Below, piece after piece: positions 5,602 through 24,274 of a DNA stretch of 32,000 bases. Source of the DNA: Acidothermus cellulolyticus 11B (GTDB lineage: Bacteria; Actinomycetota; Actinomycetes; Acidothermales; Acidothermaceae); the NCBI RefSeq assembly GCF_000015025.1, contig NC_008578.1, positions 180,001 to 212,000 of the forward strand, read 5' to 3'. Made by a program: the position numbers and the translations under genes. The notes under the pieces are model-generated. The model ran no database searches and had not been told where the DNA came from. It saw nothing but the letters and a program-made list of their open reading frames with translations. The first letter of the stretch is position 1; every line of letters starts with the position of its first letter.

Positions 5602-5955
5602 CAGGGCCCGGCGCTGAGAGATAGCTCACATCGGCTGTTGCGTCGCTTCTCGGCGCGGCGGCGGACGCCCGGAGCTGGTTGACCGCGGGGCGGCGTAATC
5701 CGGGGCAACCTCGCCGCGGCGGCGACCCTCCCCGGCCGCTGCGCGGCGGGCTCGCGCGTCGACGACCCCGTCGATTTCCCGGCCGTCGTCCACCCGGCCC
5801 CTGCGCGGCGGACTTGCGGAGGCGGTGGCCGGTTGTTACCGTCGCTGTGGCGTCCAGCGGCTGCTGGATGTCCGCCGGGGTGGGACGGCCGTAAGAATTA
5901 CGCTTATGTGATTCCGGCTGTTCACGTCACCGGCAGGCCGAGTCCGGGGAGTGTT

Positions 5956-7062
5956 GTGCGCAAGCGGCTCATTCTGGCGACCGGCTCCGGTTTGGTCGCA
6001 GCGGCGGTGCTCTCCGCTGCAGCCGGCTATGCGGCTCACCAAGCATCCGTTGTCCTCGTTGTCGACGGCCACGTGCAGCACGTTCGCACGCATGCCCGCA
6101 GTGTGGCCGACGTGTTGAAGAAGCAGCACATTGCTGTCGGTCCGCACGATTCTGTCACGCCGGCGACGAACTCCCGGATTCACGACGGGCAAACGGTAAC
6201 CGTTACGCACGGCCGATTGTTGACTGTCACTGTCGATGGCGTCACCCGCCGAGTATGGGTCGCGGCCAACAGCGTTGCCGACGCGCTGCGGTACATCGGT
6301 ATTCGTACGGCAGGCGCGCGCCTCTCGGTGAACCGGTTCGCGCGCGTCCCGTTATCCGGCATGGACATTTCCATCAACCTCCCGCACACGCTCTCCGTTG
6401 TCGTCGACGGGCGGGTGCAGAGCATCGTCACCACAGACGACACAATCGGCGGCGCCCTGCAGAGTGCCGGTATCCGGCTGAACCCAGATGACGAAGTCTC
6501 GGTTCCGTTGGAGGAACGGCCTGCTGACGGCGTGACGGTCGTCATCACCCGGATAACAATCGGTCAGACGACCGAGCAGGTTCCGATTCCGTATAACACG
6601 GTCACCACATACGATTCCTCGCTCTACGTCGGAACACGGAAAGTCTCCCAGTTGGGGCATAACGGCGTCCTTGTCCGGACGTACCGGGTCACGTATGCGA
6701 ACGGAACGGAGCGCAGCAAGCAGTTGCTGTCGTCGCAGGTCAGCGTTCCACCGACACCTCAAGTTGTGCTGGTCGGCACCAAACCCATTCCGGTCGCACC
6801 CGCGCCGACATACTCCGTAAAATCCGACGGTTTGAACTGGGCCGCGCTCGCCCGGTGCGAATCAGGCGGCCGACCGAATCTCGTGGATCCCCCGTATTAC
6901 GGGCTGTACCAATTCACCCTGCCCACCTGGCGGGCCGTTGGCGGCCGGGGGTTGCCGAGCGATGCATCGCCGTCCGAACAGACGTACCGCGCCCAGCTCC
7001 TTTACCAGCGGAGCGATTGGCGGCGGCAGTGGCCCGTCTGTGGGCATTATCTCTTCAGCTGA
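5956..7062 (+). CDS. rpfB: Resuscitation-promoting factor RpfB-like (3x DUF348, G5, Rpf transglycosylase domain)
   Basis: The ORF is open from 5833 (TTG). I prefer GTG 5956 (VRKRLILATGSGLVAAAVLSAAAGYAA is a membrane anchor/signal; GGGGAG lies 4 nt upstream). GTG 5908 is an alternative. There are repeated V.VDG....V.T....V.D.L units (DUF348), then a G5-like segment (ITIGQTTEQVPIPYNTVTTYDSSLYVGTRKVSQLGHNGVLVRTYRVTYANGTE). The C-terminus WAALARCESGGRPNLVDPPYYGLYQFTLPTWRAVGG is the Rpf lysozyme-like domain with the catalytic Glu in CESGG. Confidence 0.9.
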   Translation: MRKRLILATGSGLVAAAVLSAAAGYAAHQASVVLVVDGHVQHVRTHARSVADVLKKQHIAVGPHDSVTPATNSRIHDGQTVTVTHGRLLTVTVDGVTRRVWVAANSVADALRYIGIRTAGARLSVNRFARVPLSGMDISINLPHTLSVVVDGRVQSIVTTDDTIGGALQSAGIRLNPDDEVSVPLEERPADGVTVVITRITIGQTTEQVPIPYNTVTTYDSSLYVGTRKVSQLGHNGVLVRTYRVTYANGTERSKQLLSSQVSVPPTPQVVLVGTKPIPVAPAPTYSVKSDGLNWAALARCESGGRPNLVDPPYYGLYQFTLPTWRAVGGRGLPSDASPSEQTYRAQLLYQRSDWRRQWPVCGHYLFS

Positions 7063-7182
7063 CCGCGTGGTAACATACCCACATCTTTTCAACGGATCAC
7101 GCCGTGAATATCCACGAATTTTCTCGCACTCATACGGTTTGGGCTCCGGTTTTCCGGCGCGGCGTCAACGTACCATGAGGTC

Positions 7183-8055
7183 GTGTCAGACGCTGGTCAT
7201 GTCGACGCGGTGTGCAAGCCGCTCGGCGCTGCGGACATTCGGGAGCTCGCGCGGAGTGCCGGAGTCCGGCCGCGCAAGACATTCGGCCAGCATTTTGTTG
7301 TCGATCCCGGAGTGCTGCGGAAAATCGCGCGATATGCCGAATTGTCGTCCGAGGACATCGCGCTTGAGATCGGCCCTGGTTTCGGTTCCCTCACCCTGGT
7401 GCTGTTGCCGCTGGTCCGTCGCCTGCTTGCCGTCGAGATTGACCGAGTGCTGGCCGCCGTCCTGCCGGAGACGATTCGTCGTCGCTGTCCGGCGTTCGCC
7501 GACCGGCTCGTGGTCGTCCACGGTGACGTTCTGCGGCTGACAACTCTCCCGGACGATCCAACGGTTCTTGTCGCCAACTTGCCCTACAACGTGGCGGTAC
7601 CCGCCGTGCTGCGGGTATTCGAGCGATTTTCCACCGTGACGCGGACGGTCATCATGGTGCAACGGGAGGTGGCCGAGCGGCTCTGCGCGGATCCCGGTTC
7701 ACCTGCGTACGGTGCGCCCTCGATAAAACTGCGGTGGTACGGTCGGGCGAGGATCGTCGGCTCGGTCTCCGCCGACGTCTTCTGGCCGCGGCCGCAGGTG
7801 GAATCCGCCGTGGTGCGGATCGATCGGCAGCCGCCGCCCGTTCCCGGGGTCGACCGCGCGGCGGTCTTTGCCGTCATTGACGCCGCATTTGCCCAGCGGC
7901 GGAAGATGTTGCGGCGCGCGCTGAGCGGCTGGGCCGGTTCGGCACAGGCGGCCGAGGAGCGGATCCTTGCCGCCGGCCTTCGGCCGACCGACCGGGGCGA
8001 GGCATTGACTCTCGCTGACTTTATTCGACTGGCACAGGCACCGCCGACTCGATAG
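7183..8055 (+). CDS. rsmA: 16S rRNA (adenine1518/1519-N6)-dimethyltransferase KsgA/RsmA
   Basis: 290 aa. Motifs KTFGQHFVVD, LEIGPGFGSLT (SAM-binding glycine loop), ANLPYNVAVP and FWPRPQVESAVVRI are KsgA/Erm-family signatures. Its position after rpfB matches Rv1009/Rv1010. Confidence 0.94.
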   Translation: MSDAGHVDAVCKPLGAADIRELARSAGVRPRKTFGQHFVVDPGVLRKIARYAELSSEDIALEIGPGFGSLTLVLLPLVRRLLAVEIDRVLAAVLPETIRRRCPAFADRLVVVHGDVLRLTTLPDDPTVLVANLPYNVAVPAVLRVFERFSTVTRTVIMVQREVAERLCADPGSPAYGAPSIKLRWYGRARIVGSVSADVFWPRPQVESAVVRIDRQPPPVPGVDRAAVFAVIDAAFAQRRKMLRRALSGWAGSAQAAEERILAAGLRPTDRGEALTLADFIRLAQAPPTR

Positions 8056-8171
8056 TTTTCGAAGACGCTCCCCGATTGCGCGGTACCTGACCGGACGACA
8101 GATTGCACGTCCCGTTGGGCCAGAAGTGCGGTTATGTGCGTCGCGATCATACTTCCGCTTGGCACATCGGC

Positions 8172-8200
8172 TTGACAGCTGCCGCAGGCTCTCCTACCGT
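8172..8200 (+). promoter_or_regulatory. Candidate sigma-A type promoter of the esterase gene (TTGACA-17 nt-TACCGT)
   Basis: TTGACA at 8172-8177, an exact 17-nt spacer, then TACCGT (TAnnnT) at 8195-8200. The same architecture is found upstream of the xylanase gene (10732-10760). Sequence pattern only. Confidence 0.45.
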
Positions 8201-8216
8201 TACGCCGAACCCTCAT

Positions 8217-8246
8217 TTGTTGCCGAAACTTTCAGAGGCGGCTGGA
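8217..8246 (+). promoter_or_regulatory. 30-bp box TTGTTGCCGAAACTTTCAGAGGCGGCTGGA, copy 1 (candidate operator / leader element)
   Basis: Identical 30-mer at 10779-10808. Both copies start 17-19 nt downstream of the putative -10 hexamers. It contains the odd palindrome GAAA-C-TTTC. The flanks on both sides have diverged while the 30-mer has not. Confidence 0.5.
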
Positions 8247-8339
8247 GATCGGCGCAGGGGTTACGGGGGACGGCTGCCGCCACGGTGAGCGACATCGTCG
8301 GCGGCGGTACACGTCACCGTTCCAACAAAGGAGACTTCC

Positions 8340-10310
8340 ATGCGACGTATTGGACGACGCCTGGCGGTTTGGCTAAGTGCCGGGACTGTTGCGATCACGG
8401 CGGCCATGACGGGATTCCTTGGGGCCGGTGGTGCACGCGCCGCCTCGACAGGCCCGATCCCACCCGGCGTGTTGACGCAAGTAACGAATTTCGGCACGAA
8501 TCCCACGGCCTTGAACATGTACGTCTATGTACCGCAAAATCTGGCTGCCCGGCCTGCTCTGCTGGTCGCCATTCATTACTGCACGGGCAGTGCGCAGGCA
8601 CTGTTCAGCGGCTACGCGCACGACTTTGTGACCGCAGCTGACCGGTACGGATACATCATTGTCTTCCCGGAGGCCACCCGTAGTGGTCAGTGCTTCGATG
8701 TCTATAGTCCGCAAGCACTTGCCCGCAACGGCGGCAGTGACCCGCAAGGCGTCATGTCCATGGTGTCGTGGGTCGAGAGTCAATATCCCATTGACCGCAG
8801 TCGCGTCTTCGCCATGGGCGTATCGTCCGGCGCCATGATGACGAACGTACTGCTCGCCGAATATCCCGATGTTTTCGCGGCCGGTGTCGCCTTCATGGGT
8901 GTCCCGTACGGATGCTTCGCGACGGGCAGCGCAAGTGTGACGTGGAACAGTCAATGTGCCAACGGCCAGGTGATTAAGACGGCCCAACAGTGGGGCGACC
9001 TTGCCCGGTCGGCTTATCCAGGTTACACCGGCGGGTACCCGCGCATTCAACTCTGGCACGGCACGGCGGATACCACGCTCAACTACGCAAATCTCGGCGA
9101 AGAGGTCAAGCAGTGGACCAACCTGCACGGACTCTCGACAACGCCGACTTCGAGCGACAGTCCGGTGTCCGGATGGACACGAAGCCGGTACGGCAGCACG
9201 ACGACGCAGCCACCGGTCGAAGCGATAAGTGTGGCGGGTGCGGGTCATGTCCTGCCGCAAACCGGAATGGACGCGTACGCCATCACATTCCTCGGTCTTG
9301 ACAGTGCGGGTGGGTCGGTGTCGCCGTCTCCGTCGCCGTCGCCGAGTCCGTCGCCGTCGCCGAGTCCGTCGCCGAGTCCGTCGCCGAGCCCATCCCCGTC
9401 GCCGAGCCCGTCTCCGTCGCCGTCTTCGTCGCCGGTGTCGGGTGGGGTGAAGGTGCAGTATAAGAACAATGATTCGGCGCCGGGTGATAATCAGATCAAA
9501 CCGGGTTTGCAGGTGGTGAATACCGGGTCGTCGTCGGTGGATTTGTCGACGGTGACGGTGCGGTACTGGTTCACCCGGGATGGTGGGTCGTCGACACTGG
9601 TGTACAACTGTGACTGGGCCGTGATGGGGTGTGGGAATATCCGCGCCTCGTTCGGTTCGGTGAACCCGGCGACGCCGACGGCGGACACCTACTTGCAGTT
9701 GTCGTTCACCGGCGGCACCTTGCCGGCTGGTGGGTCGACGGGTGAGATTCAAAGCCGGGTGAATAAGAGTGACTGGTCGAATTTCACCGAGACGAATGAC
9801 TACTCGTATGGGACGAACACCACCTTCCAGGATTGGTCGAAGGTGACGGTGTACGTCAATGGCCGGTTGGTGTGGGGGACTGAACCGTCCGGCACCAGCC
9901 CCAGCCCGACACCGTCCCCGAGCCCGACACCGTCCCCGTCCCCGAGCCCGAGCCCGTCGCCGTCTCCGAGTCCGTCGCCGAGTCCGTCGCCGAGTCCGAG
10001 CAGCTCGCCGTCGTCTGGGTGTGTGGCGAGTATGCGGGTGGACAGTAGTTGGCCGGGCGGGTTTACCGCCACGGTGACGGTGAGTAATACCGGTGGGGTG
10101 TCGACCAGTGGTTGGCAGGTCGGGTGGAGTTGGCCGTCGGGTGACAGTCTGGTCAACGCGTGGAATGCGGTGGTGTCGGTGACCGGGACGTCGGTGCGGG
10201 CGGTCAATGCCTCCTACAACGGGGTGATTCCCGCGGGTGGGTCGACGACGTTCGGGTTCCAGGCCAACGGCACACCCGGCACCCCGACCTTTACCTGCAC
10301 CACCTCCTGA
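8340..10310 (+). CDS. Secreted carbohydrate esterase (PHB-depolymerase/feruloyl-acetylxylan esterase fold, CE1-like) with C-terminal CBM3 and CBM2
   Basis: RBS AAAGGAGA 6 nt before the ATG. Signal peptide MRRIGRRLAVWLSAGTVAITAAMTGFLGAGGARA. The catalytic part has LLVAIHYCTGSA...IIVFPE and the nucleophile elbow GVSSG in RVFAMGVSSGAMMTNVL, then LWHGTADTTL. A Ser-Pro linker follows (~9319-9440), then CBM3 (VKVQYKNNDSAPGDNQIKPGLQVVNTGSSSVDLSTVTVRYWFTRDG...), a Pro/Ser/Thr linker, and CBM2 (GCVASMRVDSSWPGGFTATVTVSNTG...TFTCTTS). Confidence 0.9.
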   Translation: MRRIGRRLAVWLSAGTVAITAAMTGFLGAGGARAASTGPIPPGVLTQVTNFGTNPTALNMYVYVPQNLAARPALLVAIHYCTGSAQALFSGYAHDFVTAADRYGYIIVFPEATRSGQCFDVYSPQALARNGGSDPQGVMSMVSWVESQYPIDRSRVFAMGVSSGAMMTNVLLAEYPDVFAAGVAFMGVPYGCFATGSASVTWNSQCANGQVIKTAQQWGDLARSAYPGYTGGYPRIQLWHGTADTTLNYANLGEEVKQWTNLHGLSTTPTSSDSPVSGWTRSRYGSTTTQPPVEAISVAGAGHVLPQTGMDAYAITFLGLDSAGGSVSPSPSPSPSPSPSPSPSPSPSPSPSPSPSPSPSPSSSPVSGGVKVQYKNNDSAPGDNQIKPGLQVVNTGSSSVDLSTVTVRYWFTRDGGSSTLVYNCDWAVMGCGNIRASFGSVNPATPTADTYLQLSFTGGTLPAGGSTGEIQSRVNKSDWSNFTETNDYSYGTNTTFQDWSKVTVYVNGRLVWGTEPSGTSPSPTPSPSPTPSPSPSPSPSPSPSPSPSPSPSPSSSPSSGCVASMRVDSSWPGGFTATVTVSNTGGVSTSGWQVGWSWPSGDSLVNAWNAVVSVTGTSVRAVNASYNGVIPAGGSTTFGFQANGTPGTPTFTCTTS

Positions 10311-10490
10311 CCACCGGTCCAACCCAGGGGTGCCGCGGCCCCGGCTAGGGGCAGGGACGCAGCACACACCAGCCCACCACCCGGCCGCGGCCGCGACACG
10401 CCGTCCACGCCACGGGGGTATGGGGCGGTCACCCACCCGGTGACCGCCCCACACAACCCCACCACCACCCCACACCACACACACGAGCGT
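9314..10490. repeat. Long direct repeat, copy 1 (1177 bp): linker-CBM3-linker-CBM2 coding module plus 180 bp of 3' flank
   Basis: Aligns to 11947-13117 at offset 2633, shifting to 2627 after an extra GTCGCC (one Ser-Pro) near 9356-9361. The only substitution I found is G10400 vs C13027. Translations of several different frames on both strands are identical between copies (e.g. 9491..9688 = 12118..12315 and 9800..10207 = 12427..12834), which implies nucleotide identity. Confidence 0.97.
10422..10450 (+). terminator. Stem-loop terminator candidate after the esterase gene (12-bp perfect GC-rich stem, no U-tail)
   Basis: GGGGCGGTCACC (10422-10433), loop CACCC, GGTGACCGCCCC (10439-10450). It is followed by a G-free C/A tract rather than a T-run, so it is either an I-shaped actinobacterial terminator or a Rho-assisted one. 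Confidence 0.55.
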
Positions 10491-10731
10491 GGTGTCGACG
10501 AGGATGGTCGTCTGCCGGATGGCGTGCCACCGGCGCCATCTGGGTGACGGCCCAGCGGCAGTGGTGTCGGCCGAGGATGGTCGTCTGTTGCACTGGTGCT
10601 TGTCAGGTTGTGTGCCGGCTGCTTGTACCCGCCCGTTCGCCGAATATCGGTCGACAATTTTCGAATCCGATCGGGTGTGGACGCGTAACGCTGATGGCCG
10701 ATTACTCAGTGAATTCCGGCTGATTACCGTC

Positions 10732-10760
10732 TTGACACTGCAGAGACAGTCCTCTAACCT
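10732..10760 (+). promoter_or_regulatory. Candidate sigma-A type promoter of the xylanase gene (TTGACA-17 nt-TAACCT)
   Basis: TTGACA at 10732-10737, a 17-nt spacer, then TAACCT at 10755-10760. This parallels 8172-8200. Confidence 0.45.
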
Positions 10761-10778
10761 GCCGGCAGGCTCCTGGCA

Positions 10779-10808
10779 TTGTTGCCGAAACTTTCAGAGG
10801 CGGCTGGA
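10779..10808 (+). promoter_or_regulatory. 30-bp box TTGTTGCCGAAACTTTCAGAGGCGGCTGGA, copy 2
   Basis: Identical to 8217-8246 and in the same position relative to the putative promoter. Confidence 0.5.
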
Positions 10809-10900
10809 AGGCATGGCATCCAGGAGGACGGGGGAAGCCGCCACGATCTCCGGCGTCGGCGGTTGTCGTGTGTACCCGAGTTCCGATGGAGGAGATTTTC

Positions 10901-12937
10901 ATGCATCACGCGATGCGAAGAATGGTGACGTCGGCCAGTGTCGTCGGCGTCGCTACGCTTGCCGCCGCCACCGTTTTGATCACAGGCGGCATCGCCCACG
11001 CTGCGTCCACCTTGAAACAGGGGGCGGAGGCGAACGGCCGCTACTTCGGCGTATCGGCGAGCGTCAATACACTGAACAACTCAGCTGCCGCTAACCTGGT
11101 CGCCACGCAATTCGACATGCTAACGCCTGAGAACGAAATGAAGTGGGACACCGTCGAGTCGTCGAGAGGATCCTTCAATTTCGGTCCAGGCGATCAGATC
11201 GTCGCTTTCGCCACTGCACACAACATGCGGGTCCGTGGTCACAACCTGGTCTGGCACAGCCAGCTGCCCGGATGGGTGTCGAGCCTGCCGCTGAGCCAGG
11301 TTCAGTCGGCCATGGAGTCACACATCACGGCTGAAGTGACGCACTACAAGGGCAAAATATACGCCTGGGACGTAGTGAACGAACCGTTCGACGACAGCGG
11401 CAATCTCCGCACCGATGTTTTCTATCAAGCGATGGGAGCGGGCTACATCGCCGACGCCCTGCGGACCGCCCACGCCGCCGATCCAAACGCGAAGCTCTAC
11501 CTCAACGACTACAACATCGAGGGTATCAACGCCAAGAGCGACGCGATGTACAACTTGATTAAGCAACTGAAGAGCCAGGGCGTGCCCATCGACGGCGTCG
11601 GCTTCGAGAGCCACTTCATTGTCGGGCAGGTTCCGTCGACCCTGCAGCAAAACATGCAGCGCTTCGCGGACCTCGGCGTTGACGTCGCCATCACCGAGCT
11701 CGACGACCGGATGCCGACTCCACCTTCGCAGCAGAATCTCAACCAGCAGGCGACAGATGACGCCAATGTCGTCAAGGCCTGCCTTGCGGTTGCACGCTGT
11801 GTCGGCATCACTCAGTGGGACGTCAGCGACGCGGACTCGTGGGTGCCCGGCACCTTCTCGGGTCAGGGTGCAGCGACAATGTTCGACAGCAATCTTCAGC
11901 CAAAGCCAGCCTTCACCGCCGTCTTGAACGCGCTCAGTGCAAGTGCGTCGGTGTCGCCGTCTCCGTCGCCGTCGCCGAGTCCGTCGCCGAGTCCGTCGCC
12001 GAGTCCGTCGCCGAGCCCATCCCCGTCGCCGAGCCCGTCTCCGTCGCCGTCTTCGTCGCCGGTGTCGGGTGGGGTGAAGGTGCAGTATAAGAACAATGAT
12101 TCGGCGCCGGGTGATAATCAGATCAAACCGGGTTTGCAGGTGGTGAATACCGGGTCGTCGTCGGTGGATTTGTCGACGGTGACGGTGCGGTACTGGTTCA
12201 CCCGGGATGGTGGGTCGTCGACACTGGTGTACAACTGTGACTGGGCCGTGATGGGGTGTGGGAATATCCGCGCCTCGTTCGGTTCGGTGAACCCGGCGAC
12301 GCCGACGGCGGACACCTACTTGCAGTTGTCGTTCACCGGCGGCACCTTGCCGGCTGGTGGGTCGACGGGTGAGATTCAAAGCCGGGTGAATAAGAGTGAC
12401 TGGTCGAATTTCACCGAGACGAATGACTACTCGTATGGGACGAACACCACCTTCCAGGATTGGTCGAAGGTGACGGTGTACGTCAATGGCCGGTTGGTGT
12501 GGGGGACTGAACCGTCCGGCACCAGCCCCAGCCCGACACCGTCCCCGAGCCCGACACCGTCCCCGTCCCCGAGCCCGAGCCCGTCGCCGTCTCCGAGTCC
12601 GTCGCCGAGTCCGTCGCCGAGTCCGAGCAGCTCGCCGTCGTCTGGGTGTGTGGCGAGTATGCGGGTGGACAGTAGTTGGCCGGGCGGGTTTACCGCCACG
12701 GTGACGGTGAGTAATACCGGTGGGGTGTCGACCAGTGGTTGGCAGGTCGGGTGGAGTTGGCCGTCGGGTGACAGTCTGGTCAACGCGTGGAATGCGGTGG
12801 TGTCGGTGACCGGGACGTCGGTGCGGGCGGTCAATGCCTCCTACAACGGGGTGATTCCCGCGGGTGGGTCGACGACGTTCGGGTTCCAGGCCAACGGCAC
12901 ACCCGGCACCCCGACCTTTACCTGCACCACCTCCTGA
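10901..12937 (+). CDS. Secreted endo-1,4-beta-xylanase, GH10 catalytic domain + CBM3 + CBM2
   Basis: The ORF is open from 10868. I prefer ATG 10901 (GGAGGA 7 nt upstream; MHHAMRRMVTSASVVGVATLAAATVLITGGIAHA is a signal peptide). GH10 motifs: TPENEMKWD, RGHNLVWHSQLPGWV, the acid/base Glu in WDVVNEPF, and the nucleophile Glu in AITELDD. The C-terminal 330 aa are identical to the esterase tail. This architecture matches what I recall for Acidothermus cellulolyticus Xyn10A. Confidence 0.95.
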   Translation: MHHAMRRMVTSASVVGVATLAAATVLITGGIAHAASTLKQGAEANGRYFGVSASVNTLNNSAAANLVATQFDMLTPENEMKWDTVESSRGSFNFGPGDQIVAFATAHNMRVRGHNLVWHSQLPGWVSSLPLSQVQSAMESHITAEVTHYKGKIYAWDVVNEPFDDSGNLRTDVFYQAMGAGYIADALRTAHAADPNAKLYLNDYNIEGINAKSDAMYNLIKQLKSQGVPIDGVGFESHFIVGQVPSTLQQNMQRFADLGVDVAITELDDRMPTPPSQQNLNQQATDDANVVKACLAVARCVGITQWDVSDADSWVPGTFSGQGAATMFDSNLQPKPAFTAVLNALSASASVSPSPSPSPSPSPSPSPSPSPSPSPSPSPSPSPSSSPVSGGVKVQYKNNDSAPGDNQIKPGLQVVNTGSSSVDLSTVTVRYWFTRDGGSSTLVYNCDWAVMGCGNIRASFGSVNPATPTADTYLQLSFTGGTLPAGGSTGEIQSRVNKSDWSNFTETNDYSYGTNTTFQDWSKVTVYVNGRLVWGTEPSGTSPSPTPSPSPTPSPSPSPSPSPSPSPSPSPSPSPSSSPSSGCVASMRVDSSWPGGFTATVTVSNTGGVSTSGWQVGWSWPSGDSLVNAWNAVVSVTGTSVRAVNASYNGVIPAGGSTTFGFQANGTPGTPTFTCTTS

Positions 12938-13117
12938 CCACCGGTCCAACCCAGGGGTGCCGCGGCCCCGGCTAGGGGCAGGGACGCAGCACACACCAGC
13001 CCACCACCCGGCCGCGGCCGCGACACCCCGTCCACGCCACGGGGGTATGGGGCGGTCACCCACCCGGTGACCGCCCCACACAACCCCACCACCACCCCAC
13101 ACCACACACACGAGCGT
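11947..13117. repeat. Long direct repeat, copy 2 (1171 bp)
   Basis: See copy 1. It ends 16 nt before the ispE start codon. Confidence 0.97.
13049..13077 (+). terminator. Stem-loop terminator candidate after the xylanase gene (identical to 10422-10450)
   Basis: GGGGCGGTCACC-CACCC-GGTGACCGCCCC. The ORF-track start 13067 for ispE falls inside this stem, which argues against that start. Confidence 0.55.
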
Positions 13118-13132
13118 CTACCATCGAGACTC

Positions 13133-14065
13133 GTGTCGGTGACCGTCCAAGCCTCGGCGAAAATCAACCTGTATTTGCGGGTCGGCCCGTTGCGGTCCGA
13201 CGGTTACCACGATCTTGCGACCGTATTTCACGCCGTATCGCTCCACGATGAGATTACCGTCGAGGAGAGCGAGCATCTCTCTCTTGAAATCTGCGGAGAG
13301 CAGGCGGAGAAAGTCCCGCTTGACGGCGACAATCTCGCCGTCCGTGCGGCAATGCTGCTTGCCAGGCGGCTCGGGCGGGAACCCGGAGTCCGGATTGTCC
13401 TCCGTAAGGGAATTCCGGTTGCGGGTGGAATGGCCGGCGGCTCTGCTGATGCTGCAGCGACGCTCATCGCATGCGCGGCGCTGTGGCATGCGGAACTTCC
13501 GCATGACGAGCTGATGACGTTGGCCGCGCAACTCGGGAGCGACGTACCGTTCTGCGTTGTCGGCGGTACCGCGTTGGGCCACGGGCGGGGTGAACGTCTG
13601 GCACCGGTGCTCGCGGCCGGACCGTGGTACTGGGTTCTTGCGTTGGCCGATGGCGGATTGTCAACGCCACAGGTGTACGCCGAATTCGACCGCCGCCGCG
13701 CATCCGGGGACGGTGAGCTACGCGAGCCCGGGGACGGCGAGCCGCTCGACGTACCGGCTGCCCTCCTCTCCGCCCTCCGGGACGGCGATCCCAAACGGCT
13801 CGGCTCGCTGCTGCACAACGATTTGCAGGACGCCGCTGTCGCCCTGCGGCCCGCGCTTGGCCGAGTGCTCGAAGCGGGGCTGGACGGCGGAGCCCTCGGA
13901 GGCATCGTCTGCGGTTCCGGCCCCACCTGCGCTTTTCTGGTGTCCGACCAGGACGCAGCTGTGGACCTCGCGGCACGATTGGCCGGCTCGGGATGGGTGC
14001 GCGCCGTGCGCTGCGCAACCGGACCGGCCGCGGGCGCGCGCATTCTCGCCAGGACCGCGGGATAA
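13133..14065 (+). CDS. ispE: 4-diphosphocytidyl-2-C-methyl-D-erythritol kinase (MEP pathway)
   Basis: GHMP-kinase motifs: AKINLYLRVGPLRSDGYHDLATVF, and the phosphate-binding loop IPVAGGMAGGSADAAA. The in-frame GTG at 13133 (VSVTVQASAKINL) gives a canonical N-terminus. The upstream part of ORF 13067.. lies in the repeat/terminator and encodes only a Pro/His/Thr-rich read-through. Confidence 0.9.
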   Translation: MSVTVQASAKINLYLRVGPLRSDGYHDLATVFHAVSLHDEITVEESEHLSLEICGEQAEKVPLDGDNLAVRAAMLLARRLGREPGVRIVLRKGIPVAGGMAGGSADAAATLIACAALWHAELPHDELMTLAAQLGSDVPFCVVGGTALGHGRGERLAPVLAAGPWYWVLALADGGLSTPQVYAEFDRRRASGDGELREPGDGEPLDVPAALLSALRDGDPKRLGSLLHNDLQDAAVALRPALGRVLEAGLDGGALGGIVCGSGPTCAFLVSDQDAAVDLAARLAGSGWVRAVRCATGPAAGARILARTAG

Positions 14066-16191: not shown

Positions 16192-16375
16192 GCTGACACC
16201 CTCCTCTGTAGTCCGACGACAGGAAGGCCCAGCCGGGCCCGCCGCCGCCTGGTCGACGATCAACCGCGAGGCGTCCACCACCGGAATGCTCCCGCTCTGG
16301 ACATCGCCCACCGTCGGGCCATGGCCCGTCGATCGCGATGTTCGTTGGCGCTCCTGCGGCGGCCGCCACTTGTTT

Positions 16376-16402
16376 GACGAGGTTGCCTCCGTTGCCGTGA
16401 CA
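16376..16402 (-). promoter_or_regulatory. ECF41-type promoter motif TGTCACG-N16-CGTC upstream of the epimerase gene
   Basis: The minus strand reads TGTCACG (16402-16396), exactly 16 nt, then CGTC (16379-16376). The published ECF41 target consensus, as I recall it, is TGTCACA-N16-CGTC, giving 10 of 11 specified positions with exact spacing. It lies ~185 nt upstream of ATG 16191. Confidence 0.55.
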
Positions 16403-16495
16403 GCTGGGTTGCCGGGCCCGCCTGTTGTGGCAGGTCCAGCAAGCCGGCCCCTCCTGATCCACTCGCTGGCAGCGTCGGGTTCGCCACACCTGATC

Positions 16496-19946: not shown

Positions 19947-20807
19947 TTGGGCACCGTGCTGGCGACCTATGTGATCGGCTTACGAGAAGGACTCGAAGCT
20001 GCGCTGATCGTCGGGATCATTGCCGCGTTTCTGCGCCGACAAGGCCGGATGGACGCGTTGCGGCTCGTCTGGGTCGGGGTGAGCGTCGCCGTCGCGCTCT
20101 GCGCCGGTGTCGCCGTCACGTTGCAGGTCATCTCCGCGGAATTGCCGACCCGTGCGCAAGAAGGCCTGGAGACCGTGGTGGCCGTACTCGCCGTCTGCAT
20201 GGTCACCACGATGATTCTCTGGATGCGGCGTCACGCCCGGGCGCTGAAGGGGGAACTTGAGCGCGCAGCCGCATGGGCGCTCGAGCACGGCTCGGCGTAC
20301 GCCATGGTTGGTATGGCGTTTCTCGCCGTGCTCCGCGAAGGCTCTGAAACGGCCGTCTTCTTGTTGGCGGTGCTGCAGCAACCGGGGGTGCGGGCCATCA
20401 CCGCGGGCGGCGGCGTCATCGCCGGACTCGTCACCGCCGTCGTCATCGGGTGGGGGATTTACCGCGGCGGCGTGCGACTCAATCTCACACGCTTCTTCCG
20501 TGCGACCGGCGTCGTTCTCGTTCTCGTCGCTGCCGGGCTTGTCATGAGTGCCCTGCACACGGCCCATGAAGCCGGCTGGCTCAACGCCGGGCAATCGCAG
20601 CCCATCGACATCGCGTGGCTGGTGCGGCCGGGGACGCCGATCGCCGCGCTGGCAACCGGCGTCCTTGGTCTGCAACCGCATCCAGCGCTCGCGGAAATCG
20701 TCGGCTGGTGCTGCTATGTGCTGCCGATGCTGGCCGTTGTGCTCCGGCAGCCGCGCCGGCCCGCCACGACGCCGAGGGTGGCGCCGGAAGTGTCCGCAAC
20801 CTCGTGA
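19947..20807 (+). CDS. efeU: Ferrous iron permease EfeU (FTR1/OFeT family)
   Basis: Two RExxE iron-binding motifs (GLREGLEAAL and LREGSETAVF) and seven hydrophobic helices. The ORF-track start 19947 is TTG. GTG 19956 sits 9 nt after GAGGAG and is more likely. Confidence 0.9.
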   Translation: MGTVLATYVIGLREGLEAALIVGIIAAFLRRQGRMDALRLVWVGVSVAVALCAGVAVTLQVISAELPTRAQEGLETVVAVLAVCMVTTMILWMRRHARALKGELERAAAWALEHGSAYAMVGMAFLAVLREGSETAVFLLAVLQQPGVRAITAGGGVIAGLVTAVVIGWGIYRGGVRLNLTRFFRATGVVLVLVAAGLVMSALHTAHEAGWLNAGQSQPIDIAWLVRPGTPIAALATGVLGLQPHPALAEIVGWCCYVLPMLAVVLRQPRRPATTPRVAPEVSATS

Positions 20808-20868
20808 CCAGCGGTCGACTGTCGCATCGCGACGGACTTTCCCATCGCGACAAATCGGAGAGGTGACA

Positions 20869-22026
20869 ATGGCGAGTGTTCGGCGGTTCGGTCCAGCGGG
20901 CGGCGTTCGGCGGTTCGGCCTGGTCGGCGGCGTCGTCCTGGCGCTCGTGAGTGGCTGTTCGTCGGACAGTGGAGGCACCACCCCACGGGGTATCGGGACA
21001 GACGCAGGCACCCGGAATGTGAACATCGTTGTGACCGCTGAGGGATGCCCACCCAGTCCGGCGCGCGTTGACGCCGGCCTCATCCGATTTCACGTGCGCA
21101 ACCAGAACGCTTCTGCCGTGACCGAGGCGGAACTCCTTGCCGGCTCGACAATCCTTGGCGAGAAGGAGAATCTCGTTCCCGGACTGGACGGAACCTTCAC
21201 GCTGCGCCTCCAACACGGGCGATACACCGTCTATTGTCCGAACGCCAAGCAACCACGCAGTGATTTCGTCGTGACCGGGGAGAATGCGTCACCCACGGCT
21301 GCTGCGGCCACGGAAGCCGCGGCGCGCTACCACCAATTCGTCGTCGGTCAGGTGCAGGCGCTGGTCACGGGCACAGCGACGTTCTGTGCGGCGGTCAAGG
21401 CTGGTGACCTGGCGGCGGCACGGCGGGCATATCCGGCAGCGCGGTGGCACTACGAGGCCATTGAACCCGTGGCGGAGAGTTTCGGTGATCTCGACCCCGC
21501 GATTGATGCCCGCCTGGATGACGTCGCAGATCCGGCCGAATGGACGGGCTTTCATCGACTCGAAAAGGCGCTCTGGCAGGACGATTCCCTGGCGGGCATG
21601 ACCGCGGTGGCCGACCGGCTGCAAAGCGACGTCCGCACTCTTGCTGACCTCGTCGCAACCCAGACCTATCAACCGGCACAAATTGCCAACGGCGCCGTGG
21701 AACTCCTTGATGAAATTGCGCGCAGCAAGGTCACCGGCGAGGAAGAGCGGTACAGTCACACGGATTTATATGACATCGACGCCAATCTCGCCGGCTCGAA
21801 AGCTGCTTTCCAAGCCGTCGAACCGATTCTGCGTGAACGTGATCCGGCGCTCGCGACAACCATCGATGCGCGTTTTGCCGACGTGGAAGCCGCGTTGCGT
21901 CCGCTTGCGCGCGGCACCGGCTGGGTGTCGTACGAGGCCGTGGACGCCGCGACCCGCAGGAACCTCGCGCAGCGTATCGACGCGCTCGCGGAACCCTTGT
22001 CACGAGTTGCTGCTGTCGTCGGCTGA
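20869..22026 (+). CDS. efeO: Iron uptake system component EfeO (cupredoxin-like N-domain + M75/imelysin-like domain), lipoprotein
   Basis: ATG 20869 is preceded by GGAGAGGTG. The signal MASVRRFGPAGGVRRFGLVGGVVLALVSGC has a lipobox. The N-domain (IRFHVRNQNASAVTEAELL...GRYTVYCP) and C-domain (HYEAIEPVAESFGDLD, WTGFHRLEKALW with HxxE) are typical of EfeO. The ORF-track start 20548 overlaps efeU. Confidence 0.87.
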   Translation: MASVRRFGPAGGVRRFGLVGGVVLALVSGCSSDSGGTTPRGIGTDAGTRNVNIVVTAEGCPPSPARVDAGLIRFHVRNQNASAVTEAELLAGSTILGEKENLVPGLDGTFTLRLQHGRYTVYCPNAKQPRSDFVVTGENASPTAAAATEAAARYHQFVVGQVQALVTGTATFCAAVKAGDLAAARRAYPAARWHYEAIEPVAESFGDLDPAIDARLDDVADPAEWTGFHRLEKALWQDDSLAGMTAVADRLQSDVRTLADLVATQTYQPAQIANGAVELLDEIARSKVTGEEERYSHTDLYDIDANLAGSKAAFQAVEPILRERDPALATTIDARFADVEAALRPLARGTGWVSYEAVDAATRRNLAQRIDALAEPLSRVAAVVG

Positions 22027-22043
22027 TACCAGGTTGATGTGCA

Positions 22044-23336
22044 ATGACTGAGGCATCTGGCGGCGTCACGCGACGGCGTTTTCTCGGCGGCCTCGGACTT
22101 GCCGGCGGAGGTCTCGGGATCGCAGCCGCCTTCACGGGCGGAAGCGCAGCCGGCGCCGTCCTCGGCCTGGTCGACCGATCCCCTGACGGGCGATCTGAGC
22201 AGGCGGCGGGTGCGGTGTCGACACCGGGTCGCGTGGTCCCGTTTCGGGGGCGCCATCAAGCCGGCATCATCACGCCGGCCCAGGATCGGCTGGTCTTTGG
22301 CGCGTTTGACGTGGTGACGGATTCAGCGGGTGCGCTACGTGACGTGCTGGACGCGTGGACGATTGCCGCTGAAGCAATGACACAGGGTCGCTCCGTGCCA
22401 GCAGATGATGGGAGCCCGCAAGCACCACCCACCGACACCGGCGAGGCACTCGGTTTACCGCCGGCCGCGTTGACGGTGACGATCGGGTACGGGCCGCGAC
22501 TCTTCGCGCGATTTGGGCTCGCCACCCGTCGCCCGTCAGCATTGGCCGAGCTTCCTCCGCTTCCCGGCGATCGACTCGATCCGGCCCGGTGTGGCGGGGA
22601 CATCTGCATCCAGGCGTGCTCCGACGATCCGCAGGTCGCATTCCACGCGGTGCGTAATGTGACCCGGCTGGGCCGGGGTGTCGTGGTCCTCCGGTGGCTG
22701 CAGCTCGGTTTCGGACGCACCTCGTCGACGACGACCGGTCAGCAGACGCCTCGTAACCTGATGGGCTTCAAAGACGGCACGCGGAATCTCCGAGCCGATG
22801 ACACGGCCGCATTGGATCGGCACGTGTGGATTGGTACGGAGACCGACCAACCGTGGCTCATCGGCGGCAGCTACCTCGTCGCGCGGCGGATCCGGATGTT
22901 GATCGAAGCATGGGACCGGGCGTCGCTGAGCGAGCAGGAACGGGTGATCGGCCGGCGTAAAGTATCGGGCGCTCCGCTCACCGGATCCAGGGAATACGAC
23001 CCGCCGGATTTCTCCGCCGTGCGGGCCGGCGAACTGGTCATCCCGTCGGACGCCCACATCCGGCTGGCCAGTCCCGAGCACAACGCCGGACGCCGAATGC
23101 TTCGTCGCGGCTACTCCTATACCGACGGCATCGATCTCTCAACCGGGGAGCTGGACGCTGGTCTGTTCTTCATCTCCTTCCATAAGGATCCCGCAACATT
23201 CATCGCCGTCCAGCGCATTCTCGGCACCCAGGACGCGCTGCGGGAGTACATCGTGCACACCGGGAGCGCACTTTTCGTCTGCCCGCCGGGTTTGCAGGAC
23301 GGCGAATCGTGGGGGCGCCAACTCTTCGGCGCGTGA
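22044..23336 (+). CDS. efeB: Dyp-type peroxidase / deferrochelatase EfeB, Tat-exported
   Basis: Twin-arginine signal TRRRFLGGLGLAGGGL. Dyp motifs GFKDGTRN, AHIRLA and RRGYSY. Confidence 0.92.
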   Translation: MTEASGGVTRRRFLGGLGLAGGGLGIAAAFTGGSAAGAVLGLVDRSPDGRSEQAAGAVSTPGRVVPFRGRHQAGIITPAQDRLVFGAFDVVTDSAGALRDVLDAWTIAAEAMTQGRSVPADDGSPQAPPTDTGEALGLPPAALTVTIGYGPRLFARFGLATRRPSALAELPPLPGDRLDPARCGGDICIQACSDDPQVAFHAVRNVTRLGRGVVVLRWLQLGFGRTSSTTTGQQTPRNLMGFKDGTRNLRADDTAALDRHVWIGTETDQPWLIGGSYLVARRIRMLIEAWDRASLSEQERVIGRRKVSGAPLTGSREYDPPDFSAVRAGELVIPSDAHIRLASPEHNAGRRMLRRGYSYTDGIDLSTGELDAGLFFISFHKDPATFIAVQRILGTQDALREYIVHTGSALFVCPPGLQDGESWGRQLFGA

Positions 23337-23497
23337 CGCAGCGTCGTTGCGCGCCAGTGATCCGGCGCGTGACGCAGCATCGGCGAATGCCGGCGGTCCC
23401 GCCGCGTGACGCCGCTCCTGCCGGCCGGACTCGTCCGGCCCGCTGCCGCCGCGCTGTGCCGCGCGGGTGACCCGTTCGTCCTGCGCTGCCGGAGCAC

Positions 23498-24274
23498 TTG
23501 CGACTCATGCGCGAGAATCGAACCGTGAACCAGGCGCACGATTTGATCGACACCATTGAGATGTATCTCCGCACGATCTACGAACTCGAGGAGGAGGGTG
23601 TCGTTCCGCTGCGGGCCCGGATCGCCGAGCGGCTCGGGCAGAGCGTACCGACCGTTTCACAGACCGTCGCGCGGATGGAGCGACACGGCCTGGTTCACCT
23701 CGAAGGCGACCGCCGCCTTGAACTCACGCCGCAAGGGCGGGCAGCCGCCACCCGCGTCATGCGCAGGCACCGGCTCGCCGAGTGTCTTCTTGTCGACGTC
23801 ATTGGGCTGGATTGGGAGCTCGTGCATGAAGAGGCGTGCCGCTGGGAGCACGTCATGAGCGAAGAGGTGGAGCGGCGGCTCTTGGAGATTCTCGGCCATC
23901 CGACCGAATCGCCGTACGGAAACCCAATTCCAGGCCTCGACGAACTCGGCGAACCGCGCCGCGATGTCGCTTTCCGCGAAGGACTCGTGCCGCTCCCGTC
24001 GATTCCGGACCAGTTTGACCGGGTCATTGTCCGCCGGATCGGGGAGCCGCTCCAGTCGGACCGGGCGCTCCTTGGCCGACTCCGTCGCGCCGGGGTGCGG
24101 CCGAACGTGCCGGTGCCTGTGCGCCGGGAGTCGCGCGGCGGGGTGTGGCTGGGCCGCGAGCCGGACGCCGTCCACCTCGAGGACGCGGCCGCTGCGCACG
24201 TCTTCGTCCGACCGGTCGAATTGGAGGGCGTCGACGGTTCGGCGGCTGCTGCGGGGGCGGCGGCGCGTGCATGA
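23498..24274 (+). CDS. ideR: Iron-dependent transcriptional repressor, DtxR/IdeR family
   Basis: [50 protein letters not shown]...[40 protein letters not shown]...[10 protein letters not shown] is near-colinear with M. tuberculosis IdeR as I remember it. A C-terminal SH3-like domain is present. The start is ambiguous: TTG 23498, ATG 23507 or GTG 23525. Confidence 0.93.

Follow-up and report, generated by a model that had tools for sequence, protein, structure and literature searches.

Two neighbouring genes that end in one module

We analysed a window of 32,000 nucleotides (nt) from the genome of Acidothermus cellulolyticus 11B (NC_008578.1, positions 180,001–212,000, forward strand; coordinates below are window positions), in which a gene for a predicted CE1-type esterase and the gene of a GH10 xylanase stand next to each other and run into two nearly identical copies of one 3′ module. 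Each copy consists of a Ser-Pro linker, a carbohydrate-binding module of family 3 (CBM3), a Ser/Pro/Thr linker, a CBM2, the stop codon and a non-coding tail. The two genes with their promoter elements, repeat copies and tails, as well as the flanking genes ksgA and ispE, all lie on the forward strand (+).

The first gene (8340–10310) encodes a secreted protein of 656 amino acids (aa) with an esterase domain followed by CBM3 and CBM2; its unique part, delimited with Pfam, NCBIfam and the PDB, comprises a signal peptide and the catalytic domain (8340–9313). The Pfam matches are Esterase_PHB (2.4e-14), CBM_3 (1.7e-22) and CBM_2 (5.5e-23), the esterase domain matches the NCBIfam model e_dPHAscl_type1 (6.9e-82), and the translation holds G-V-S-S-G, which corresponds to the GxSxG nucleophile motif. 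The closest solved structures in the PDB, feruloyl esterase 8iy8 (4e-74) and acetylxylan esterase 5x6s (1e-66), place the predicted product among the CE1-type esterases. The gene is presumably Acel_0179, a tag that we take from its adjacency to Acel_0180; a literature search for 'Acel_0179' found no paper.

The second gene (10901–12937) has a ribosome-binding site (GGAGGAG, ~10888–10894) ahead of its ATG and begins with a unique part (10901–11946; Pfam, primer match) made up of a signal peptide and a GH10 catalytic domain. The latter matches the Glyco_hydro_10 profile over positions 2–310 of 311 (7.3e-115), with CBM_3 and CBM_2 matches behind it, and the translation contains WDVVNEP (the acid/base motif NEP) and ITELD (the nucleophile motif TELD). 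Acel_0180 was previously amplified from genomic DNA as a 1.9 kb polymerase chain reaction product, which was sequenced and gave an active 69 kDa GH10-CBM3-CBM2 xylanase; the cloning primers, DC701 and DC702, are listed in supplementary Table S1 of that study (PMC4994175). Since these primers match the window exactly at 11006–11028 and 12914–12934, with an amplicon of 1929 bp that agrees with the published 1.9 kb, the second gene is Acel_0180 and its copy of the module (copy B) is experimentally real. The reverse primer, DC702, also matches the esterase copy (copy A) at 10287–10307, and in practice a primer sited in the tail will anneal to either gene.

As to the binding modules, the CBM3 matches 2l8a (2e-40) and CipA in the PDB, and the CBM2, which spans GC... 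to ...FTCTTS with a terminal Cys pair, matches the CBM2a of Cex (1exg, 1.7e-14). The CBM2 of Acel_0180 has been classed as type 2a (PMC4994175). Both enzymes thus carry one and the same predicted cellulose-targeting pair, CBM3 plus CBM2a, and the uncharacterised esterase beside Acel_0180 would have exactly the targeting modules of its neighbour. Pfam and the PDB are in agreement here with a first-pass annotation of the window, made from the sequence alone, which had named a CE1-like esterase, a GH10 xylanase, CBM3 and CBM2.

Pairwise alignment of 9250–10560 with 11880–13190 showed that copy A (9314–10490, 1177 nt; also delimited by Pfam and the PDB) and copy B (11947–13117, 1171 nt; also covered by the primer match and by metagenome contigs) are identical base for base except for one indel and one substitution. 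The indel is a 6-nt Ser-Pro unit, extra in copy A, in the hexamer-repeat linker, and its placement within ~9348–9361 is ambiguous; the linker DNA is composed of 12/18/30-nt repeats, of which the indel is one unit. The substitution, G10400 in copy A against C13027 in copy B, lies in the non-coding tail. This amounts to 1 substitution in 1171 aligned nt, or 0.085%, with synonymous and non-coding sites included, and judging from the alignment we consider that such identity cannot be of chance origin. The parts of copy A, as delimited by alignment and Pfam, are the Ser-Pro linker (9314–9440), CBM3 (9441–9890), the Ser/Pro/Thr linker (9891–10013), CBM2 (10014–10307), the TGA stop (10308–10310) and the tail (10311–10490); those of copy B are the linker (11947–12067), CBM3 (12068–12517), the second linker (12518–12640), CBM2 (12641–12934), the TGA stop (12935–12937) and the tail (12938–13117), with a hairpin at 13048–13078. 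The repeat coordinates and the two differences reported in the first-pass annotation proved exact to the base, and the alignment holds no scattered substitutions, hence no pattern of ordinary paralogy. A repeat scan of the window recovered the same pair only, with no third copy and no inverted repeats.

Both edges of the repeat are sharp. Its onset lies 4–6 codons past the end of each catalytic domain (...FLGLDSAGG/SVSPSP in the esterase, ...LNALSASA/SVSPSP in the xylanase), in keeping with the earlier statement that it begins at the junction of catalytic domain and linker, and the alignment likewise bore out that it reaches 180 nt beyond the stops, across a hairpin and a C/A tract. The 12 nt on the 5′ side (9302–9313 and 11935–11946) are identical at 9 of 12 positions; the further 5′ flank and the sequences 3′ of 10490 and 13117 are unrelated and gave no alignment. 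After the indel, the start-to-start spacing of the two copies is 2627 bp. RecA-dependent recombination between direct repeats can delete the DNA between them, and the locus is a plausible substrate for the loss of the xylanase promoter and catalytic region by this route, which would in practical terms make the catalytic region deletable.

The tail in a sister species and in close strains

As a sister-species reference we used contig L072 from the metagenome-assembled genome (MAG) Acidothermus sp. HOT.MAX.052. Here rpfB and ksgA are followed, at the same site as in 11B, by an orthologue of the esterase gene (656 aa). The catalytic domain has 82% aa identity with its 11B counterpart, and the terminal CBM2 is 81% identical in aa and 79% in nt, as against 100% identity of the CBM2 between copies A and B. 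The internal module of the L072 esterase is a second CBM2, with no CBM3 there, and its own two CBM2s are 69% identical to each other. The first ~30 nt past the esterase stop are, by eye, similar to the 11B tail. Because the terminal CBM2 of L072 is homologous at 81%, the CBM tail is older than the species split, and a linker-CBM-linker-CBM2 tail already stood on the esterase in the common ancestor, roughly 20% divergence ago. The contig itself stops 75 nt past the esterase stop (L072 4787–4861) in ~15 G followed by ~40 C. This end most likely arose in assembly or sequencing, as an artefact of a GC hairpin or repeat that is difficult to sequence.

For each catalytic domain we inspected the 120 best of the listed homologues (top identity 77%); the appended module was a single CBM2, a CBM13 or absent, and never a CBM3. 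For control we examined contig L087 (2672–7326) of an unrelated metagenomic actinobacterium, where two genes for LacI-family regulators stand in one cluster with a GH10-CBM2 xylanase gene and a gene for a homologous esterase with a CBM2; the CBM2 tails of this pair are only distantly related (75% over 72 nt). Together with the 69% between the two CBM2s of L072, this figure represents the ordinary divergence of paralogous tails. Because L087 clusters both genes, the pairing of a xylanase with a CE1 esterase recurs.

Strains closer to 11B were sampled through three short-read metagenome contigs, L076 (Ga0070738_10056386), L077 (Ga0209061_1015576) and L079 (Ga0070737_10020058), each of which starts inside the module and extends through ispE and beyond. 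The junction of tail B with ispE is reproduced independently in all three. Their flanks are ~99% (L077) or ~98.5% (L076 and L079) identical to 11B, and their ispE divergence of 1.3–1.9% is ~15-fold above the difference between copies A and B. Divergence from 11B is distributed unevenly along L076: it amounts to 15% in linker 1, 17% in linker 2, 28/455 (6.2%) in CBM3, with 13 synonymous and 11 non-synonymous codons, 1/296 (0.3%) in CBM2, 5/171 plus two indels in the tail and 18/1243 (1.45%) in the ispE flank. The difference between CBM3 and the ispE flank is significant (Fisher P = 1.4e-6) in a contig that is possibly a short-read chimera. In L077, the part of the module that is covered has 0/511 differences and the ispE flank 16/1243. 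The module would seem to evolve out of step with its flanks, as recurrent exchange among paralogous tails predicts, with the reservation that the contigs may be chimeric.

At the one site that varies between the 11B copies, L076, L079 and L077 all have C, as does copy B; because they share this base with copy B, G10400 is probably a later change, one that arose in copy A after the transfer. The contigs begin inside Ser-Pro linkers, at the equivalents of window positions 11953, 12607 and 12642, so the linkers or modules break short-read assemblies, an indirect sign that the close strains, too, have more than one copy of the module. A protein-database search for the close-strain esterase gave no match above 77%. 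In all three contigs, divergence from 11B jumps to 6–7% near window 16200–16440.

Origin of the near-identity

The combination of an ancestral tail with an A/B difference of 0.085% argues for very recent non-reciprocal homologous recombination, by gene conversion or tail replacement, and we assign this explanation a probability of roughly 0.72. The linker-CBM3-linker-CBM2-stop-3′ untranslated region (UTR) of one gene would have overwritten an earlier CBM tail of the other gene that was homologous to it but diverged. The 5′ joint of the exchange would have formed in Ser-Pro repeats of the linker DNA, already present in both genes, and its 3′ joint at the end of an older common 3′ tail, the CBM3 being carried over as a heterologous insert between two homologous arms. 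Both enzymes would have come out of the exchange with one CBM3+CBM2a pair and one 3′ RNA hairpin. As for direction, a transfer from the xylanase to the esterase is slightly favoured, because the outgroup esterase is without CBM3 and copy A holds the derived base. The first-pass annotation had likewise read the module as either copied very recently or homogenised by gene conversion, and in both cases as module shuffling; the sister-species tail, the absence of CBM3 from the listed homologues and the 75% identity of the control tails all lend support to that view.

Several observations weigh against recent non-reciprocal recombination, or at least against the evidence drawn on for it. L079 starts at 12642, which is exactly the breakpoint in L076, and two paralogues may have been joined in the latter contig. 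As the strain contigs have their starts within the module, the catalytic domain preceding it is unseen. The internal module may instead have changed in the lineage of the MAG. Finally, a search for an outgroup orthologue of the xylanase yielded best GH10 matches that are 77% identical and not syntenic, which bears on the choice of donor and recipient.

The layout of the locus could also have come about through a single recent duplicative event with no ongoing homogenisation, be it Campbell-type integration of a circularised, module-bearing xylanase gene or an illegitimate 1.17 kb copy onto a tail-less catalytic gene. The order of esterase catalytic domain, module, unique 1.46 kb, module and ispE is that of a single-crossover product, the sharp edges leave no residual homology beyond 10490/13117, and the metagenome contigs do not cover the sequence that precedes the module in other strains. 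We nevertheless consider such an event unlikely, though a real alternative, since the orthologous terminal CBM2 (81%) of the sister-species esterase and the ~30 nt that look alike by eye indicate that at least one locus was tailed beforehand, and since unequal segment-wise divergence inside the module of the strain contigs is not what it predicts. Far less probable is an assembly artefact, either a misjoin or one repeat wrongly entered at two places of the finished sequence: near-identical repeats are classic sites of misassembly and the copy A junctions have no independent confirmation, but the copies differ by a single-nucleotide polymorphism and a 6-nt indel, the tail B–ispE junction recurs in three independent metagenome contigs, and the MAG esterase is also CBM-tailed and of the same length class (656 aa). 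Acel_0180 was, moreover, amplified as 1.9 kb, sequenced and shown to encode an active 69 kDa enzyme (PMC4994175).

An origin of the module as a cassette that is mobile or was acquired horizontally (a transposon, an integron-like element, or plasmid or phage cargo) seems more improbable still. Two genes for carbohydrate-active enzymes (CAZymes) do interrupt the otherwise conserved rpfB-ksgA-ispE block, but there are no inverted repeats in the window, no transposase or integrase open reading frame between or beside the copies and no match in plasmid or phage collections; with the esterase at the same site in another species, the insertion would be old and the identity recent. We give least credence of all to the view that purifying selection for protein and RNA function suffices. 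Across all strain contigs the hairpin is indeed invariant, as are the 95 nt next to it, but such selection cannot freeze ~330 synonymous third positions plus 180 non-coding nt, and the CBM3 of L076 does differ at 13 synonymous and 11 non-synonymous codons.

A wider form of the recombination account is doubtful in our estimation: the linker-bounded CBM3-CBM2 and 3′ UTR might be a cassette that evolves concertedly across the genome, with the tail of copy B co-opted for ispE expression signals. If true, Ser-Pro linker DNA would serve as a recombination joint, and numerous CAZyme genes would swap tails about as fast as strains diverge.

The phenomenon as such has been known since 1990 and opens no new biological question. 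A study of that year (Biochem J 272:369, cited in PMC4408175) reportedly described identical cellulose-binding domains on the adjacent genes xynB and xynC of Pseudomonas fluorescens subsp. cellulosa. That case resembles the present one in its adjacent hemicellulase genes with unrelated catalytic domains, a nucleotide-identical cellulose-binding region and Ser-rich linkers, and its authors reportedly likewise inferred domain shuffling, with a recent duplication or conversion; it differs in that the shared part was reportedly an N-terminal CBM2a (plus CBM10), whereas that of 11B is a C-terminal CBM3-CBM2 tandem which continues 180 nt into the 3′ UTR. The 11B case further adds outgroup evidence for a different earlier tail. 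Concerted evolution by ectopic gene conversion is known for bacterial paralogues such as the tuf genes and the rRNA operons, to which the locus is similar in its within-genome near-identity at silent and non-coding sites, compared with divergence between species, and in homologous exchange of the RecA type among repeats, whether dispersed or in tandem. Unlike these, the 11B locus would homogenise a sub-genic module only, the upstream gene parts being non-homologous and the 5′ edge lying in low-complexity linker repeats. Shuffling of CAZyme domains via Ser/Pro/Thr-rich linkers is itself textbook knowledge.

Secreted CAZymes of A. cellulolyticus 11B with CBM3/CBM2 tails, among them Acel_0180 and GuxA (Acel_0615), have been described before (PMC4994175, PMC9181691). 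They share with the present pair the arrangement of catalytic domains joined by Ser/Pro-rich linkers to CBM3 and CBM2, and Acel_0180 is the gene that bears copy B; the two papers treat domain architecture only, however, and make no mention of the neighbouring esterase or of nucleotide identity between the tails. It appears undescribed so far that the tails of Acel_0180 and the adjacent esterase gene are identical at base level, that this identity reaches 180 nt into the 3′ UTR, and that the sister-species orthologue differs in having a CBM2-CBM2 tail. These findings offer a dated, base-level view of how modular plant-cell-wall enzymes are rebuilt, in which a whole binding tail with its 3′ UTR would have moved between neighbours.

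Non-coding tail, promoter regions and surroundings

The non-coding tail extends 180 nt beyond each TGA stop. In tail A it contains a hairpin with a 13-bp GC-rich stem and a 5-nt loop (10421–10451; fold −30.6 kcal/mol, z = −4.5), followed on the 3′ side by a G-free tract of ~34 nt (~10452–10485) that holds C and A only; over 39 nt there is one T. The first-pass annotation had called this element a terminator. Its strong hairpin is present in both tails, as claimed, but no U tract stands behind it, the terminator scan calls nothing there and the element does not fit a canonical intrinsic terminator; the hairpin could equally be a stabiliser of the 3′ end rather than a terminator. Rich in C and devoid of G, the tract looks like a Rho loading region, by inference only. 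An Rfam search of the window at the gathering threshold gave no match, and the tail belongs to no known RNA family by that measure. The tail of L076 and L079 departs from that of 11B within its first ~75 nt, by 5 substitutions and a 7-nt deletion, with the hairpin and its surroundings invariant.

Copy B lies directly ahead of ispE, the gene of CDP-ME kinase (13133–14065; NCBIfam PRK03188, 6e-134) and an essential gene of the methylerythritol phosphate pathway. The GTG start of ispE (13133) is 16 nt past the end of the repeat and ~55 nt past the −30 kcal/mol hairpin, and in the computed fold the 8 nt that close the repeat (ACACGAG...) are able to pair with CTCGTGT, which covers this GTG. Transcription of ispE could be by read-through from the xylan-regulated gene or from an unrecognised promoter. 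A leaderless ispE promoter with TACCAT at 13119–13124 was considered as a candidate and dropped, its spacing to the GTG at 13133 being unconvincing.

In their 5′ regions, the esterase and xylanase genes have in common TCTTGACA, a −10-like element and one exact 30-nt block. The −35-like hexamer TTGACA of the inferred esterase promoter (8172–8177) is invariant in an alignment of the regions upstream of the esterase, the xylanase and the MAG esterase; the intergenic region with the predicted xylanase promoter (10491–10900) has its −35 TTGACA at 10732–10737. The 30-nt block, TTGTTGCCGAAACTTTCAGAGGCGGCTGGA, lies at 8217–8246 and matches 10779–10808 at 30/30 positions. The remainder of the two 5′ regions gave no alignment, and a search of the spacer at 10491–10900 for remnants of ksgA or ispE or for a wider 5′ duplication found the 30-nt block alone to be common to both. 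Thus, of the claim that the 5′ regions are related but clearly diverged, the common TTGACA and −10-like elements and the 30-nt block stand, while the rest is unalignable and there is no diverged duplication. A consensus promoter/terminator scan reported no site in either promoter or tail.

Within the block stands CGAAACTTTCA, which occurs only twice in the window (8223–8233 and 10785–10795), against 0.06 occurrences expected. At Streptomyces xylan-utilisation promoters, the operator of BxlR is the palindrome CGAAACTTTCG (PMC4743123), and CGAAACTTTCA matches it at 10/11 bases; the MAG version is CGAAAGTTTCA, in a conserved block that differs by 3 changes and lies ahead of the MAG esterase gene (L072 2861–2890). 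Both 11B promoters thus resemble the BxlR xylan regulon in carrying CGAAACTTTCA, within the 30-nt block, downstream of −35/−10-like elements, and depart from it in that the candidate operator has one half-site mismatch. The block is probably a xylobiose-responsive repressor site, and we read it as a common regulatory site rather than as what is left of a 5′ duplication; the two genes are probably co-regulated within a xylan-degrading system. A conserved GGCGGCTGG is found 3′ of the palindrome within the 30-nt block.

Directly after tail A there is an imperfect direct repeat, GTGGTGTCG(A/GC)CGAGGATGGTCGTCTG, at ~10489–10514 and ~10571–10597, with a period of 82 nt. This repeat was not found elsewhere in the window, and a small palindrome, GATGGCG...CGCCATC, lies between its copies.

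The wider gene order is rsmI, metG, tatD, rpfB, ksgA, esterase, xylanase, ispE. The gene ahead of the esterase, ksgA/rsmA (7183–8055; Pfam RrnaAD, 1e-43), encodes the 16S rRNA adenine dimethyltransferase, and the esterase and xylanase genes interrupt a rpfB-ksgA-ispE housekeeping block (5833–14065). In Mycobacterium tuberculosis, for example, ksgA and ispE adjoin directly (Rv1010/Rv1011), and rpfB-ksgA-ispE is contiguous in mycobacteria (Rv1009–Rv1011). Further downstream, an ordinary EfeUOB-like iron-uptake cluster that is unconnected with the repeat (19947–24274; FTR1 permease, cupredoxin/imelysin protein and Dyp-type peroxidase) is followed by a gene for an iron-dependent repressor of the IdeR/DtxR family.

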